Source of the DNA: a virus
Taxonomy: Duplodnaviria; Caudoviricetes
DNA length: 33,780 nt
IMG/VR virus record: IMGVR_UViG_3300039068_000052
Coordinates: 1-33,780 of that record
Strand: one strand, 5' to 3'
Position 1 is the first letter of the stretch; every line of letters starts with the position of its first letter. The notes beneath the pieces are model-generated. The model was not told the origin of the DNA and made no database searches. It saw nothing but the letters and a program-made list of their open reading frames with translations. A program made the translations under genes and the position numbers. Positions 23,746 through 33,780 of the stretch are shown here, in pieces.

Positions 23746-24567
23746 CTACGTAACCGGTACGCTCTTGCGGCGCACCTTGACCACCTCCAATACGGGCTCG
23801 CCGGTCGGGCTGACGTACTGGATAGTCTCTCGCACCTTAGGGCCTGGAATGGGTGTGATCTCTCCATCCCGCACGGGCGCCGGCTCGATCGTGTCGACTC
23901 GGAGAGCCGCGCGGACCTGCTCACACGCCTGGACGAGGAGGTCATAGCGCTCGTTCCACCTCTCGTCGCGGCAGCGCTCCAACTTAACTTTCTCTTCGTG
24001 GGTAGGCTCGCGCTTTTCGGCCTTGATCCGGCGCTCAATCGATCGGGCCGCGACGCGCTGGTTGATCCATTGCGGCCAGTCCTGACCCACCGTGACTGCA
24101 TACAGTTCGCGGCGTGCGACAGGATCGAGGCCGTCGTTGATCTTTTTCCAAAGCCTCATCGCCCGTTCGTTGTCATCGTCGGTCGCAGGGCCGCCGCGCG
24201 AAAGCGCCGAGTCCCAGACCTTGGCCACCTCGGACGCCGGCATGTCGCGGAACTCAATGCCGCGCGCGTCGACGGCGCTGGATGGCGTCGAAAGGTCCAT
24301 GGCGCGTGGAAGGCCGGGGCCGGCCTTTGAGACCTGAATGGCTAGCCCCTCGAACAAGCACGCCGCGCGATGGTGCTCGGGCTTAAGCCAGCCATTCGCC
24401 AAGGCCGCGTCGATGGGGCAGCTCGCCTTGGTGATGTCTTCGCAGATTTCAGCGCGGCGGCGCAGGACGATCTTGTTCTTGACGGCCGGTGGCTTCAGGC
24501 GACCGTTTGGGTACCGGGCGCCATCCTTGCGCGGACGACCACGACGGGATTTCTTGTGCTTACTCAT
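23746..24567 (-). CDS. Putative late-gene regulator (Q-position protein) with N-terminal AT-hook-like motif
   Basis: Start MSKHKKSRRGRPRK...RYPNGRL at ATG 24567 (ATGA overlap); last early gene before the candidate late promoter. Function is inferred from position only. Confidence 0.55.
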   Translation of the reverse strand: MSKHKKSRRGRPRKDGARYPNGRLKPPAVKNKIVLRRRAEICEDITKASCPIDAALANGWLKPEHHRAACLFEGLAIQVSKAGPGLPRAMDLSTPSSAVDARGIEFRDMPASEVAKVWDSALSRGGPATDDDNERAMRLWKKINDGLDPVARRELYAVTVGQDWPQWINQRVAARSIERRIKAEKREPTHEEKVKLERCRDERWNERYDLLVQACEQVRAALRVDTIEPAPVRDGEITPIPGPKVRETIQYVSPTGEPVLEVVKVRRKSVPVT

Positions 24568-24953
24568 GCGGAGGCCTCGGCTAGGTCTGAAAGCATCTGG
24601 AAACGGTGCGCGGCGGGGGCGGTCGGCGCGCGGTAGGCTATGCGGCGCTCGCCCCGGCAAGAGGGCGGGACCTTGGAGGGGTGAAGCTCCTCGAAGCGGC
24701 GCAGGCCGTAATGGATGGTGGTGTGGTCCAGGCCGCCGAACCAGTTCCCGATCTGCTTAAGGCTCGGCTTTACACCCGATGCCTGCGCCTCGTTGCGGAT
24801 GCGGTAGAAGGCTTCGAACCGCACGTGGGAGACCCGGTGGGTGTGGTTCTCGGTGCAAAGCAGTTCCAAGACGCCGACCTTGTGGAACTCCGACACCTCG
24901 CGGATGATGCTGGCGATGCGCGGGGGGATATCGCGGATGCTGGGGGCGCTCAT
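24564..24953 (-). CDS. Stand-alone DnaA C-terminal (domain IV) HTH protein, copy 1
   Basis: IIREVSE...VSHVRFEAFYRIR...SLKQIGNWFGGLDHTTIHYG matches the DnaA domain IV signature. Confidence 0.85.
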   Translation of the reverse strand: MSAPSIRDIPPRIASIIREVSEFHKVGVLELLCTENHTHRVSHVRFEAFYRIRNEAQASGVKPSLKQIGNWFGGLDHTTIHYGLRRFEELHPSKVPPSCRGERRIAYRAPTAPAAHRFQMLSDLAEASA

Positions 24954-25231
24954 GCCGTCACCGCCTGGGCTTGCTTGGCCCTGAACGCAGCCAGGCGCTC
25001 GGAAAGCTCATCGTCACGGTCACGACCGGCGTTCGACGTGCGCGGCGCCATGTCCTCCAGTTCAGCCATCCGGCGGCAAAGCAGGGGCCAGGTTGCGAAG
25101 GCGTCCGTCATGCAGGCTAGGGCCTGGGCTTGGTCAGCCCTTGGCGTGGTGGCCTTCAAGAGGCTTGCGGCCATGTTTTGCGCCAAGAAGGCGCACGTCG
25201 TAGCGGCGTCGCGGATCTGGTCGGCGCTCAT
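24950..25231 (-). CDS. Hypothetical protein
   Basis: ATG 25231 and stop both in ATGA overlaps with neighbours. Confidence 0.6.
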   Translation of the reverse strand: MSADQIRDAATTCAFLAQNMAASLLKATTPRADQAQALACMTDAFATWPLLCRRMAELEDMAPRTSNAGRDRDDELSERLAAFRAKQAQAVTA

Positions 25232-25836
25232 GCACAAAGCCCCTGTTTGGCAGCAGCCACCACGGTCACGTTGTGCTTTTCGAGCCACTTCCGCAGCTCG
25301 CGACGCAGTTCATCGGCCGCAAAGCCGGTGCGCGCGATAAGGGTCCGGTTGAGCGCATCCCACCGGCAATGGTCGATGTACTTGATCGCGAAGGGCTCGC
25401 CCGCGAACTTGGCGGCAGAGGCTCGAAGCTCGGGAGGCCCGTCAAACTCAGACGCGACCTTTGGGCTTGTCGGGAAGGTTGAGATGGTTGCGGTCTTAGG
25501 CGCGCGGGCTATCGCGACGATGACCCAATTACGCCAAGCCATGCCCCAATCCCGGCAGCGGCGATCGTTCTGGCCAGCGTGCGCGGTGAACTTCTCAGCC
25601 TCTAGGCGGGCGTCGATGTTGCGGCCCTCGGAGCGGATCTTCGCCTGGGCTTCGGCAATGGCCTTGTCGTCTGGATAGCCGGGAGGAATAGCCGTCTCAG
25701 GCTTGCGGCGCGAGACCTTCCCGCGCACTGGCTCAAGAAGCCCCTCCCCCGCCTCATGCGCTTTGATGGCGGCTAAAATCGTCTGGCGATCAGCCCCGGC
25801 GTCGAAAAGCGCCTCAACCACTGACGAGAGCGTCAT
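25228..25836 (-). CDS. Replication initiator-like protein (DnaT-like C-terminal motif)
   Basis: IPPGYP...EAEKFTAH...RDWGMAWRNWV motif typical of phage O-like/DnaT-like proteins. Confidence 0.6.
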   Translation of the reverse strand: MTLSSVVEALFDAGADRQTILAAIKAHEAGEGLLEPVRGKVSRRKPETAIPPGYPDDKAIAEAQAKIRSEGRNIDARLEAEKFTAHAGQNDRRCRDWGMAWRNWVIVAIARAPKTATISTFPTSPKVASEFDGPPELRASAAKFAGEPFAIKYIDHCRWDALNRTLIARTGFAADELRRELRKWLEKHNVTVVAAAKQGLCA

Positions 25837-26129
25837 GCGGCCTCCCGCAGTTCAGCAGGACCGCAGCCGATCGCGCCGATGCGCTGCAAGCCGTTCTTGA
25901 TGGTTGAGAAGTCACGTCCACCAAACCAGCGGCCGATCTGGTGATAGGAGGGGGGAGCACCCGAGATTACGATCCGCTCACGGATGCGCGCCCATGCGTC
26001 GTAGCGGGCATGGCAAAGCGCCTTGCGAGACAGATGGCCAACAAGGTCCTCTGGCGTGAAGCCGTGTTCTTCGGCGACCTCTTGGATGATCTCGCGGACA
26101 CGGGGCGGGATGCCAGACATGGAGGTCAT
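25833..26129 (-). CDS. Stand-alone DnaA C-terminal (domain IV) HTH protein, copy 2
   Basis: IIQEVAEEHG...LCHARYDAWARIR...SYHQIGRWFGGRDFSTIKNG. Confidence 0.85.
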   Translation of the reverse strand: MTSMSGIPPRVREIIQEVAEEHGFTPEDLVGHLSRKALCHARYDAWARIRERIVISGAPPSYHQIGRWFGGRDFSTIKNGLQRIGAIGCGPAELREAA

Positions 26130-31513: not shown

Positions 31514-31743
31514 GCCGCCTTGGCCAAGACGCGCTCAACGGCGCGAATGTCACGGTCGGAGGCATTGACGAGCGGACCAACCTTGACGCCAGTGCGCTGC
31601 CAGATTTTCAGCGCCGTCTCAGGCGATGTCGGGCAACCGCGCTCAATGCGCGAGAGCTGGCTTTTCGTCAGACCGAAATCAGCGGCGAGAGCTTCCAGTG
31701 AAAGGTCTCGACCAGTCCGGTAAGTGCGAAGCGGGTGTTCCAT
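31510..31743 (-). CDS. Cro-like XRE HTH repressor
   Basis: MEHPLRTYR...LSLEALAADFGLTKSQLSRIERG; divergent from the cI-like gene. Confidence 0.85.
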   Translation of the reverse strand: MEHPLRTYRTGRDLSLEALAADFGLTKSQLSRIERGCPTSPETALKIWQRTGVKVGPLVNASDRDIRAVERVLAKAA

Positions 31744-31750
31744 ACCGCTT

Positions 31751-31801
31751 GTTGTACCCGACACAACATTGCATGGCAAGCAACGTTGTACCCGGCGACG
31801 T
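31751..31801. promoter_or_regulatory. OR-like operator cluster overlapping the pR-like promoter
   Basis: Abutting 17-bp sites GTTGTACCCGACACAAC (31751-31767), ATTGCATGGCAAGCAAC (31768-31784), GTTGTACCCGGCGACGT (31785-31801); minus strand TTGCCA-N17-TACAAC ends 7 nt before the cro ATG. Confidence 0.75.
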
Positions 31802-31835
31802 CGGAAAAATTTGTCGCGCACTGCACAATAGCGGG

Positions 31836-32174
31836 ATGATCAAGGAACGCATCATTCCCCAGCGGGCGCGCACCTACCTCAAGGAGTGGCGCAGGCACCG
31901 GGACATGAGCCTAGACAAGGTGATTGATCGCCTTGAGCTGGAAGTCGGCTTTCCCTTCTCGAAGGGTCAGCTCTCGCGGGTTGAGCGCGGCGAGCAGCCT
32001 TACAACCAGGATCTCTTGGAGGCCCTGGCGAAAGTGTACGGTTGTGACAGCGGCGATTTGATCAAGCGCGACCCGGCAGATCCGGAGCTGATCTGGGATC
32101 TCTACGACAAGATGACCGCGACGCAGCGCGTACAGGCCGCCGAAGTGATCAAGGCCTTGATGAAGGTCAGCTAG
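31836..32174 (+). CDS. CI-like XRE HTH repressor without S24 peptidase domain
   Basis: YLKEWRRHRDMSL...SKGQLSRVERGEQPYNQDLLEALA; 112 aa; likely start ATG 31836. Confidence 0.85.
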   Translation: MIKERIIPQRARTYLKEWRRHRDMSLDKVIDRLELEVGFPFSKGQLSRVERGEQPYNQDLLEALAKVYGCDSGDLIKRDPADPELIWDLYDKMTATQRVQAAEVIKALMKVS

Positions 32175-32244: not shown

Positions 32245-32634
32245 ATGAAAATCGTACTGGTGGCCGCGTGCTGCCTTATGCTTGGCGCGTGCGCGACCGT
32301 GACGCGCGGATCTTCGGACGCTTGGCAGATCGACAGCGACCCGCAGGGCGCCAAGGTCGAGACGACCAACGGCCATTTCTGCAATGCCACGCCGTGCGCC
32401 ATCAAGATGAAGCGCAACAGCGAGTTTACCGCGACCGTGACCAAGAAGGGCTACAAGCCCGGCACGGTGCAGGTCACGAACAAGATCGCGGGCCAGGGTG
32501 GCGCGGCGCTGGCCGGTAACGTGCTCGTCGGCGGCGTGATCGGGCTTGGCGTCGACTCCATCACGGGCGCGTCCAAGGACCTCGTTCCGAACCCGGCTTT
32601 CGTGAAGCTGGAGCCGGAAGAGGCCCCCAAGTAG
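32245..32634 (+). CDS. Lipoprotein with PEGA-like domain
   Basis: LGAC lipobox; IDSDPQGAKV...TPC...KKGYK; AGNVLVGGVIGLGVD..TGA..DL.PNP glycine-zipper-like C-terminus. Confidence 0.8.
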   Translation: MKIVLVAACCLMLGACATVTRGSSDAWQIDSDPQGAKVETTNGHFCNATPCAIKMKRNSEFTATVTKKGYKPGTVQVTNKIAGQGGAALAGNVLVGGVIGLGVDSITGASKDLVPNPAFVKLEPEEAPK

Positions 32635-32681
32635 AACTGGCGGGAGGGCCTAGCGCCCTCCCCTTACCCCTGGAGGGGTGA

Positions 32682-32933
32682 ATGACTGACCAAGAACGGA
32701 TTGCACGGCTGGAGCGGGAAGTTGAAAGCCAGCTCGGCATCATTGCGGGATTGACCAGTGTCGTCACTGCGCTGGTCAGGTCTCACCAGGACGCCGACCG
32801 TTTAAAGGGCGAGGCGACCAAGGCAATCGAGCTTATGGACGTGGGCTCGATTGGAAAGACCATGACCGAAAAGCAGCGGCGAATTGCTAGGGAGTTTGCT
32901 GAGCAGGCCCTTCGGACGGACCCGACCCGTTAG
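32682..32933 (+). CDS. Hypothetical protein
   Basis: GGAGGGG RBS; 83 aa helical. Confidence 0.6.
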   Translation: MTDQERIARLEREVESQLGIIAGLTSVVTALVRSHQDADRLKGEATKAIELMDVGSIGKTMTEKQRRIAREFAEQALRTDPTR

Positions 32934-33090
32934 ACCTGGCGTCCAGCCGATCGCCAAAATCCGGCAACGCGGCGACGAAGGCTTCGGCTCGGCTTTCGAA
33001 GTTTGCAAAGTCATGACGGTCCGGCGGCTTAACATCAGATCTCCGAGCGCGCTCCAGTTGCTCTTTTACCCGCCGCTTAAAACCAAACAT
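32887..33090 (-). CDS. Hypothetical 67-aa protein downstream of a long structured RNA
   Basis: Strong AGGAGG RBS; 3' end overlaps the convergent gene by 47 nt. Confidence 0.45.
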   Translation of the reverse strand: MFGFKRRVKEQLERARRSDVKPPDRHDFANFESRAEAFVAALPDFGDRLDARSNGSGPSEGPAQQTP

Positions 33091-33094
33091 CTCG

Positions 33095-33430
33095 ACCTCC
33101 TGTTTATCCTCTGTCTGAGGATCTGGGTTGTTTCTCTAGCTTCTGACCATTGGTGAAGCTGAGGTTTCGGGCATAGGACCACTCCCGAGCGGCCCGGGCC
33201 TAACTCGGGGCGGTCCTACTCGGGGCTTTCTGACCACTGGAGCCAGCTTCGGCCTGCGAGCCCTTGCCTGCCGATGCGGCGACAAGGTTGGGGGCTGCGT
33301 TCAGCGCTGCATCGCACTGGCGACCGGGGCTCCCCCTTTCGGACTCCCCTTTGGCTTTGGCCGCATCCAACAGTAGCCATGTCCCCCGCGCCGCTGCCGT
33401 TATCCAACCAGGCCATCAGGGTAAGCGGCG
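33095..33430 (-). ncRNA. Candidate large structured RNA (about 330 nt)
   Basis: No credible ORF; at least six stems including a GAAA tetraloop on the minus strand; see findings. Confidence 0.5.
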
Positions 33431-33479
33431 ATATAGAGAAGATTGATTGAAGACGCATTTGACATAGGGTAGAACCTAT

Positions 33480-33580
33480 ATCGTTGTTTCTTCACAACCG
33501 GGCTCGGTCTCGCCGCGAAACGATAGAGCCTGTTAGGCCGCCGTTCTGATCCTCCTGGGGTTGGTCGGCGGCCTTTTTCG
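33480..33580 (+). ncRNA. Candidate ~100-nt sRNA ending in an intrinsic terminator that carries CCTCCT
   Basis: TTGACA at 33459 and TTGAAG-N17-TAGAAC upstream; GGCTC...GAGCC stem; AGGCCGCCG...CGGCGGCCT-TTTT terminator. Confidence 0.45.
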
Positions 33581-33608
33581 TTCTCCCCCTACATGCCCGA
33601 TTTCGTTT

Positions 33609-33660
33609 GTTGCGCCAAGCACAACTTTTCTGTTGCGGCCCGCGTTGTACCTGATACAAC
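33609..33660. promoter_or_regulatory. OL-like operators and pL-like promoter
   Basis: GTTGCGCCAAGCACAAC (33609-33625) and GTTGTACCTGATACAAC (33644-33660) match the OR sites; TTGCGG-N16-TACAAC faces right. Confidence 0.75.
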
Positions 33661-33685
33661 AGTTACATCGAACGGGAGACGCCAC

Positions 33686-33780
33686 ATGGCCTCGCAAGAA
33701 CAACTCGCCGCCGCCCTCGCGAACCTGGACAGCGCGTTTGCTGGCCGCGCGATCACGGCGCCGAAGGCTTACGCCGCGCA
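33686..33780 (+). CDS. First gene of the pL-type early operon, 5' part only
   Basis: GGGAG RBS then MASQEQLAAALANLDSAFAGRAITAPKAYAA..., open to the window end. Confidence 0.6.
   Translation, partial: MASQEQLAAALANLDSAFAGRAITAPKAYAA

Follow-up and report, generated by a model that had tools for sequence, protein, structure and literature searches.

A covarying structured RNA family of temperate phages and capsid-forming satellites as a candidate RNA-driven replication origin

Structured RNAs with repeated boxes are known from phage immunity regions, where the P1 c4 and P4 CI antisense RNAs require complementary boxes. In the bridge RNA of IS110, the left and right arms of a loop covary with a DNA site. 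In ColE1, an internal stretch of RNA pairs with downstream template DNA. ColE1 has no element-encoded initiator, and the persistent RNA-DNA hybrid of its structured transcript RNA II opens and primes the origin (PMC5043065). In capsid-forming PICIs (cfPICIs), a primase-replicase is described as part of the core (PMC10085698).

The RNA described here is encoded on a DNA stretch of 33,780 nucleotides (the window), a temperate phage record (66% complete) whose genes included terminase, capsid and tape-measure genes and a cI/cro pair. As in ColE1, satellites with this RNA had no element-encoded initiator (0/16), whereas some full phages kept one. Unlike RNA II, the RNA showed no sequence match to plasmids (three members searched) or Rfam, is shorter (~290 nt versus 550), has a putative guide that is two-armed, ~24 nt long and variable between members, and was found in integrating phages and satellites, where it alternates with initiator genes. 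The satellites resemble the pri-rep-ori arrangement of capsid-forming PICIs in their integrase, HNH, terminase, capsid, portal and adaptor genes and in a slot before the packaging genes, but the RNA sat in this slot, and searches of those elements revealed neither a primase nor an initiator gene. In contrast to the IS110 bridge RNA, the two arms would share a single strand as their target, the site lies at the end of the element itself, and no partner recombinase or nuclease was common across contexts; the flank clusters and scanned satellite ORFs contained no IS110 recombinase. The boxes differ from those of c4 and CI in being direct and having no complement on the same strand, and no such Rfam model was matched. 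Retron, DGR and group II intron RNAs were rejected as candidates, with no reverse transcriptase family among the scanned ORFs and no match in Rfam.

Fold, extent and distribution of the RNA

The RNA site lies on the minus strand, convergent with cI, and is flanked on one side by the cI operon and on the other by the beginning of the early-left arm; the early-left arm itself is absent from the window. Caulobacter and Phenylobacterium were the best genomic relatives of the window, and its lipoprotein gene showed 94% identity to the counterpart in Caulobacter phage DMCA. Operator-like palindromes (Table 1) suggest repressor control and hence transcription of the RNA only in the lytic phase. Their pattern, which was derived from the same sites and is therefore not blind, had 3 matches in the window against 0.34 expected (0/100 shuffles). 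A search for sigma-70 promoters in 32600-33780 found none, and GC skew near the element was uninformative.

Some further features of the window were noted. The gene at 25228-25836, a lead only, lies ~7 kb from the RNA; its protein matched neither Pfam HTH_36 nor a PHROG, reached Atlas feature scores of 0.86-0.87 against DnaA_N clusters, under the bar of 0.9, and no iteron array was found near it. Two short paralogous genes (24564-24953 and 25833-26129) have a common 64-nt stretch with 70% identity; by eye we take them to resemble the DnaA C-terminal domain, with no family match of that name. A short element at 32628-32695, between the lipoprotein gene and an 83-aa gene, recurred in DMCA and, sometimes twice per contig, in unrelated contigs from several runs.

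Table 1. Positions of features in the window (unless a locus is named) and of second-scaffold loci. X2, X3, X6 and X13 are sequencing runs.
Feature	Position	Strand	Remarks
cI-like repressor	31626..32174	+	HTH_31 and HTH_3, repressor PHROGs; convergent with RNA
Two operator-like palindromes	33609..33660 (starts 33609, 33644)		match cI-cro palindrome 31751-31767
Terminator-like GC-rich hairpin with T run	33535..33582	+	common to DMCA, X2, X3, X6
Possible helicase-loader-like protein	25228..25836	-	DnaA_N-like C-terminus
Whole element, structured RNA and 3' target copy	33142..33430	-	intact in X13
5' domain	33353..33423	-	P1 33412-10/33390-92; pseudoknot 33397-94/33370-73; helix 33378-76/33353-55
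Core helices	within 33290..33364	-	33364-59/33320-25, 33349-46/33326-29, 33319-14/33302-07; covariation
Core loop and pseudoknot	within 33290..33364	-	C-GAAA-G 33341-36; pseudoknot 33335-32/33291-94; covariation
Variable hairpin	33262..33287	-	33287-81/33262-68; covariation, two compensatory changes in X13
Internal copy, putative guide	33231..33255	-	identity covariation with 33167-33144
Make-up of guide	33255-45, 33238-31	-	left arm with tandem GA, near-invariant GGCUCC, right arm
Long stem	33170..33218	-	conserved CCUAUG (33177-72) at end; covariation
3' copy	33144..33167	-	left arm, TCA-CC, right arm; complementary strand is the putative target
Purine-rich tract past 3' copy	33091..33143	-	70% A+G; putative hybrid-extension zone
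Local expression cassette	33088..33122	-	ATCCTC/GAGGAT hairpin, AGGAGG RBS (33101-96), ATG
67-aa ORF, exchangeable cargo	32887..33090	-	replaced past ATG in X2, X3, X6, DMCA
Second scaffold	L338:789-1172		further loci L393, L397, L398, L370, L417, L418, L419, L427, L431, L435, L444, L446, L449, L450, L453

Folding of the window sequence alone gave a modestly unusual result (minus strand z -2.42, with 3/100 shuffles as good; plus strand z -0.49). Covariation among homologues confirms that the structured RNA is real. A structure of 50 pairs was 78.5% paired in 36 members against 59.2% in shuffled sequences, and its covariation was 0.521 against 0.198 shuffled and at most 0.145 in slid registers; these values are partly circular, as the structure was derived from a set overlapping the 36 test members. 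About ten helices including pseudoknots were supported by covariation, measured as mutual information and pair counts. Core pairs had mutual-information z values of 14-33, four pseudoknot positions were paired in every member and 24 alignment columns were at least 97% conserved, while the long 3' stem and parts of the variable hairpin aligned poorly. On the minus strand, G-U cells exceeded A-C cells by 328 to 75 (pair counts leaving out an out-of-register helix of nine pairs), which supports this strand as the functional one.

An initial annotation of the window had proposed a large structured RNA here, with G-U pairs and a GNRA loop favouring the minus strand. Every motif that it quoted was located on that strand, and pairing above shuffles, covariation and the G-U excess bear out both points. 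Not all of its helices held up. The pseudoknot drawn between GGGGG in the first loop and a downstream CCCCC, scored together with the AGCTTC/GAAGCT hairpin, paired at chance level (41.9% vs 41.4%), and the partner of CCCCC (33290-94) was not this GGGGG but the G run past the GAAA loop (33335-33332). From the tetraloop hairpin GGGG..TCC-GAAA-GGG..CCCC the GAAA loop survived, whereas the closing stem was reduced to one conserved C-G pair.

We set the bounds of the element at 33142-33430 because the isolate sequencing run X13 retained exactly this stretch with both flanks foreign. The same run carried compensatory changes at 33287/33262, 33279/33271 and 33204/33189, the first two in the variable hairpin. 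Of the originally annotated span 33095..33430, the part 33430-33142 was thus retained, and the remainder with the ATCCTC/GAGGAT hairpin and the RBS fell outside. The cassette at 33088..33122, common to DMCA, X2, X3 and X6 and missing from X13, is judged by this comparison to be outside the RNA family. In four sequencing runs from four studies, 33088-33582 was preserved with high identity, either wholly or for the most part; three of these runs had a different ORF after the ATG, and one run also replaced 33433-33509. Control of the 67-aa ORF, as suggested in the initial annotation, is not supported: the RNA is retained next to swapped ORFs, and an RBS with ORF was found within 150 nt of the RNA in only 40/77 members. 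The sole PHROG match of the 67-aa ORF was weak (E 0.0034), and a homologue search with its protein returned one match, which was unrelated. Two other readings were dropped: an intron in a GIY-YIG-like gene, as relatives replace both putative exons, and a type I toxin-antitoxin system, as the downstream ORF varies.

In DMCA, the slot of the window RNA held a different hairpin-rich sequence of 400 nt (L001:3040-3480) between the same flanking hairpins. Its loops included GNRA and UUCG types, and a hydrophobic ORF of 36 codons came next. On comparison, this sequence was rejected as a member of the family.

A pattern-based search yielded covarying homologues, and after clustering the family comprised at least 108 non-redundant members with a median identity of 55%, in phages and capsid-forming satellites. 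A first RNA pattern scan gave no matches, the three matches to the RBS-hairpin pattern were all due to chance, and the RNA was absent from loci anchored on the lipoprotein gene (4 viral, 58 genomic). The 401 genomes of the family to which the Caulobacter sample belongs contained two distant copies, from which search patterns were then built. True members made up 21/22, 3/8 and 119/119 matches in viral contigs and 14/99 in metagenomes; the others (85/99 metagenome, 5/8 and 1/22 viral) were discarded. The pattern was present in 1/401 alphaproteobacterial genomes and copies in chromosomal satellites were reached via the profile of a marker gene, which together indicates a feature of mobile elements. 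No RNA run was among those listed as holding the element, and three labelled RNA were probably DNA, with the element on contigs.

An Rfam scan gave no window match at threshold, in agreement with the earlier statement that no known family fits, and none of 20 tested members reached the threshold. Below it, window positions 33332-33423 matched Betaproteobacteria-1 (RF02932) with 19.9 bits, the gathering cut-off being 49.4; none of 30 records exceeded this cut-off (best 36.4), and in the six located by coordinates the matches mapped onto the 5' end of the RNA. In the window and several members, the first 90-110 nt aligned to the whole model of 120 positions, which does not reach as far as the guide, the long stem or the 3' copy and was matched at 19.9 bits in the window and at most 36.4 elsewhere. 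The 5' domains of the two may be related, judging from this alignment. The word 'Betaproteobacteria' is absent from the main text of the paper on that motif, whose supplement may hold more (PMC5737381), and the text available to us of a recent non-coding survey mentioned no terminase, satellite, prophage or R-loop (10.64898/2026.10.21.760802). A literature search, with most subscription journals outside its coverage, found no published description. The RNA family is real and apparently undescribed, and its self-targeting signature is unusual.

The internal copy and the 3' end of the element

A 12/13 direct repeat had been annotated at 33141-33153 and 33228-33240. It is indeed present, but it is not a plain repeat, since its letters covary as a pair of guide and target. 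The internal loop and the 3' end remained identical within members although their letters varied between members, and the strongest non-pairing signal of the alignment was the identity of 33247-45 with 33159-57 and of 33237-33 with 33150-46 (z 10-27). The family search pattern had left these letters free. Identity of guide and copy was 0.91 within members against 0.52 when shuffled across members, with a maximum of 0.57 in 1000 shuffles (103 rows, some of them mis-parsed). Family conservation ended directly after the 3' copy; in the next 40 nt the mean purine content was 0.68, compared with 0.57 upstream (100 members). Base 33178, preceding the CC of CCUAUG, stayed identical to 33343 across the family.

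Arms were counted in 71 unique arm sets from 100/108 members, the eight others having unparsed motifs (L080, L085, L100, L107, L137, L245, L301, L316). The guide had G where the copy had A at 46/202 positions, U where the copy had C at 2/252 and A where the copy had G at 3/191, counts that are not phylogenetically independent. Loop G against end A was thus the only common mismatch. At one offset, GA stood opposite TC in 57/100 members, as tandem GA against the complement, and the other members mostly showed identity or G-for-A there. No same-strand complement of the guide was found, own arms giving same-strand helices no longer than those of foreign arms (6.0 vs 6.02), and the search for additional target copies in the flanks gave 2 weak cases among 103.

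The identity covariation and the single common mismatch are most simply explained if the internal loop base-pairs with the strand opposite the 3' copy. What the loop reads would then likely be the complement of the 3' end, probably template DNA. Cas9 R-loops were reported to tolerate rG-dT and not rU-dG (10.1101/696393). The argument for a DNA partner is weakened by another study, in which rU-dG and rG-dT both ranked highest in stability among RNA-DNA mismatches (PMC3875578). On the mismatch pattern DNA is still favoured as the partner; alternatively, the guide G could be retained for folding.

Genomic contexts and replication genes

Flanks were sufficient for analysis at 72/107 loci. The satellite slot, recognized by a 75-aa gene upstream and/or a terminase downstream, accounted for 38/72 loci and a convergent cI-like gene as in the window for 12/72; the RNA followed a helicase or primase at 5/72 and preceded an O-like initiator at 5/72, and 12/72 were left unassigned. 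In full phages, replication genes thus adjoined the RNA at 10/72 loci. At the 12 cI loci, the convergent cI was the nearest recognised gene and in several directly abutted the RNA. The orientation of the RNA was that of lytic transcription, and in satellites neighbouring recognised genes pointed the same way. Three types of terminase were found downstream, so that the RNA is not bound to one packaging machine. HTH_36 was matched in 3/26 RNA-bearing records (2 over the cut-off, Shpa counted twice) and in 0/3 RNA-free controls, so that it does not distinguish the two groups.

In phage Shpa a helicase and a primase lay directly before the RNA, which the replication passages of the Shpa paper do not mention (PMC5135824). 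This copy (L412:33035-33291) overlapped the annotated short hypothetical genes gp47 and gp48, and gp47 is probably not a real gene. At another locus (L085), a cI-like frame on the opposite strand entered the 3' end of the RNA and, by eye, stopped inside.

In satellites, the RNA and replication genes were mutually exclusive. A set of 80 terminase-anchored elements contained 58 with at least 1 kb before terL, of which 0/16 RNA-bearing and 28/42 RNA-free elements had a replication gene (Fisher p 2e-6; the replication queries were derived from RNA-free loci). Two more O-like initiators and one helicase/primase raised the RNA-free count to 31/42. When 134 further plus-strand ORFs of 17 RNA-bearing loci were compared with PHROGs, only two weak and short replication-family matches appeared, both at L334. 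A quick TerL tree built from 49 rows required 9 swaps between RNA and replication gene, at least 6 of them forced by well-supported branches, against 14.4 with shuffled labels. Four whole satellites encoded integrase and head genes, with no primase or initiator among the scanned ORFs. One satellite record with the RNA also carried, at its edge, a gene for RNase H (L328:12661-13491) that may belong to the host.

The marker gene encodes a family-less 75-aa protein (L118:2828-3052 and relatives) that sits before the RNA/Rep slot in many satellites; in Atlas it fell into hypothetical clusters only, and its fold weakly resembled a portion of a protein from the RNase H family. With its profile, in which 19/20 rows came from RNA-bearing loci, 401 and 151 chromosomes around a Paracoccus genome were searched, resulting in 47 loci, some of which duplicate viral loci. 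The slot behind this gene held the RNA in 17 loci, a second scaffold in 11, a third ORF-free element in 6, a protein gene in 10 and something else in 3. Of the ten proteins, 4 were O-like initiators and 1 was a helicase/primase; 3 belonged to a PHROG with the label 'DNA topoisomerase', and 2 were unnamed. A protein of ~300 aa belonging to phrog_6247, so labelled, occurred in or near the replication slot at L445, L447, L451, L362 and L367 and is possibly an unrecognised primase or initiator. Behind 28 chromosomal RNA loci, 41 ORFs had no match to replication families (a scan that took 68 of ~116 ORFs), and terminase or HNH came next after the RNA in 24/28.

The second scaffold (Table 1) was ~350-400 nt long and occupied the same satellite slot at 16 loci, of which two were identical, including 5/17 RNA-bearing terminase-anchored loci. 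Its 5' part was different, and its module of guide and 3' copy was the same as in the first RNA. Rfam gave no real match at the six loci scanned, only chance or unrelated ones. The third element, conserved, ORF-poor and ~450 nt long, lay directly behind the 75-aa gene (L430, L432, L433, L455, L456, L459); it had no Rfam match and no recognisable guide module.

An RNA-driven origin and other candidate functions

We consider it probable, with some reserve, that the element is a ColE1-like RNA-driven replication origin. The comparative evidence argues strongly for a role in replication, since in satellites the RNA occupies the slot where related elements carry a replication-protein gene. From the observed fold, guide/copy identity, G-for-A bias, purine tract and exclusion between RNA and replication genes in satellites, we infer transcription, a DNA rather than an antisense RNA partner, an R-loop and priming or helicase loading. 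The RNA would be transcribed and fold during transcription, and the long stem would peel its 3' part off the template. The guide loop could then pair with the template DNA strand at the element's own 3' copy and hold the duplex open, and the purine-rich continuation would stay hybridised as an RNA-DNA hybrid or R-loop. Host RNase H and Pol I might prime from this hybrid, or a helicase loader might use the bubble, with no need for a Rep protein. In full phages the element would serve as an origin for lytic growth under repressor control, with the same orientation as the lytic genes, and would act together with, or in parallel to, helicase, primase or loader proteins of the phage. Against an origin speak the initiator or primase retained by some full phages (e.g. 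the helicase and primase of Shpa), the position beside cI and away from replication genes in the window and 12/72 loci, the missing plasmid match for three members, and the two weak replication matches of L334.

The slot itself could also be read as a place of transcriptional control. A put-like antiterminator, pause or terminator could act in cis, its guide gripping the template and altering RNA polymerase so as to control the packaging or cargo genes that follow. Such a device could use the same template pairing, the RNA is oriented with lytic transcription, and terminase or HNH lies behind it in 24/28 chromosomal loci, but the absence of replication genes alongside the RNA would stay unexplained and a convergent cI, several times abutting, is nearest in 12 loci; we regard such a device as unlikely. 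Occupation of the Rep slot, two variable arms around a near-invariant unpaired core and the 24 columns at 97% conservation or more would suit a guide-directed DNA-nicking ribozyme as well, whose arms clamp the complementary strand, whose GGCU/TCA bubble is cut and whose 3'-OH starts rolling-circle replication in place of Rep. The alternating proteins, however, are O-like initiators and helicase/primases, none of them named a nicking Rep, and known ribozyme models of Rfam had no match in the window, so this possibility appears quite unlikely. That a folded single-stranded DNA acts as origin or priming signal seems improbable. Covariation is blind to the difference between RNA and single-stranded DNA, no RNA run was listed as a holder and the slot exchange fits equally, yet the C-GAAA-G loop in nearly all members and the several pseudoknots are hallmarks of RNA, and G-U cells exceed A-C cells by 328 to 75 on this strand.

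The partner of the guide might instead be an antisense RNA, for example from read-through of the cI operon, which would be regulated or cut. The convergent cI operon in the window and 12/72 loci could supply this strand, and tandem GA pairs are an RNA motif. An RNA target should, however, tolerate U-G like G-U, yet U faced C at only 2/252 positions; in satellites the neighbouring genes run in the direction of the RNA and its exchange with Rep would be left unexplained, which makes this reading very improbable. Sharp ends with foreign flanks, several contexts and the L085 copy that apparently cuts a cI-like frame short are reminiscent of a selfish mobile element that encodes an RNA, depends on a protein in trans for its movement and uses the guide to read its own end. 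We see hardly any chance for this, as flank clusters and satellite scans had no common transposase or reverse transcriptase and the element stayed within one functional slot and turned up in 1/401 alphaproteobacterial genomes. Least credible is a riboswitch or leader of the 67-aa ORF: the hairpin and RBS do follow 20-50 nt behind the element, but the ORF is swapped in relatives, DMCA has the RBS without the RNA, and 37/77 members have no RBS with ORF nearby. Membership among riboswitches was likewise rejected because downstream genes differ or are absent, with no consistent related genes.

Returning to the RNA-driven origin, we tentatively extend it to a broader possibility, which we think rather doubtful: several RNA scaffolds may be protein-free, self-targeting replication initiators with a two-armed reprogrammable guide, swapped like cassettes for Rep and primase genes in satellites and phages alike. 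Their guides might invade, and perhaps nick, their own DNA; two scaffolds share the module and a third fills the slot. The guide-target rule permits a clean test by compensatory mutations. If the origin reading is true, temperate phages and phage satellites would join ColE1-type plasmids, the main known case, in starting replication from an RNA, here one that is unrelated and has a variable guide. The copying of capsid-forming satellites that lack primase or Rep would then be explained, a function could be assigned to the orphan Betaproteobacteria-1 motif, and a protein-free origin or DNA-invading RNA of 300 nt would be a useful tool in Alphaproteobacteria.
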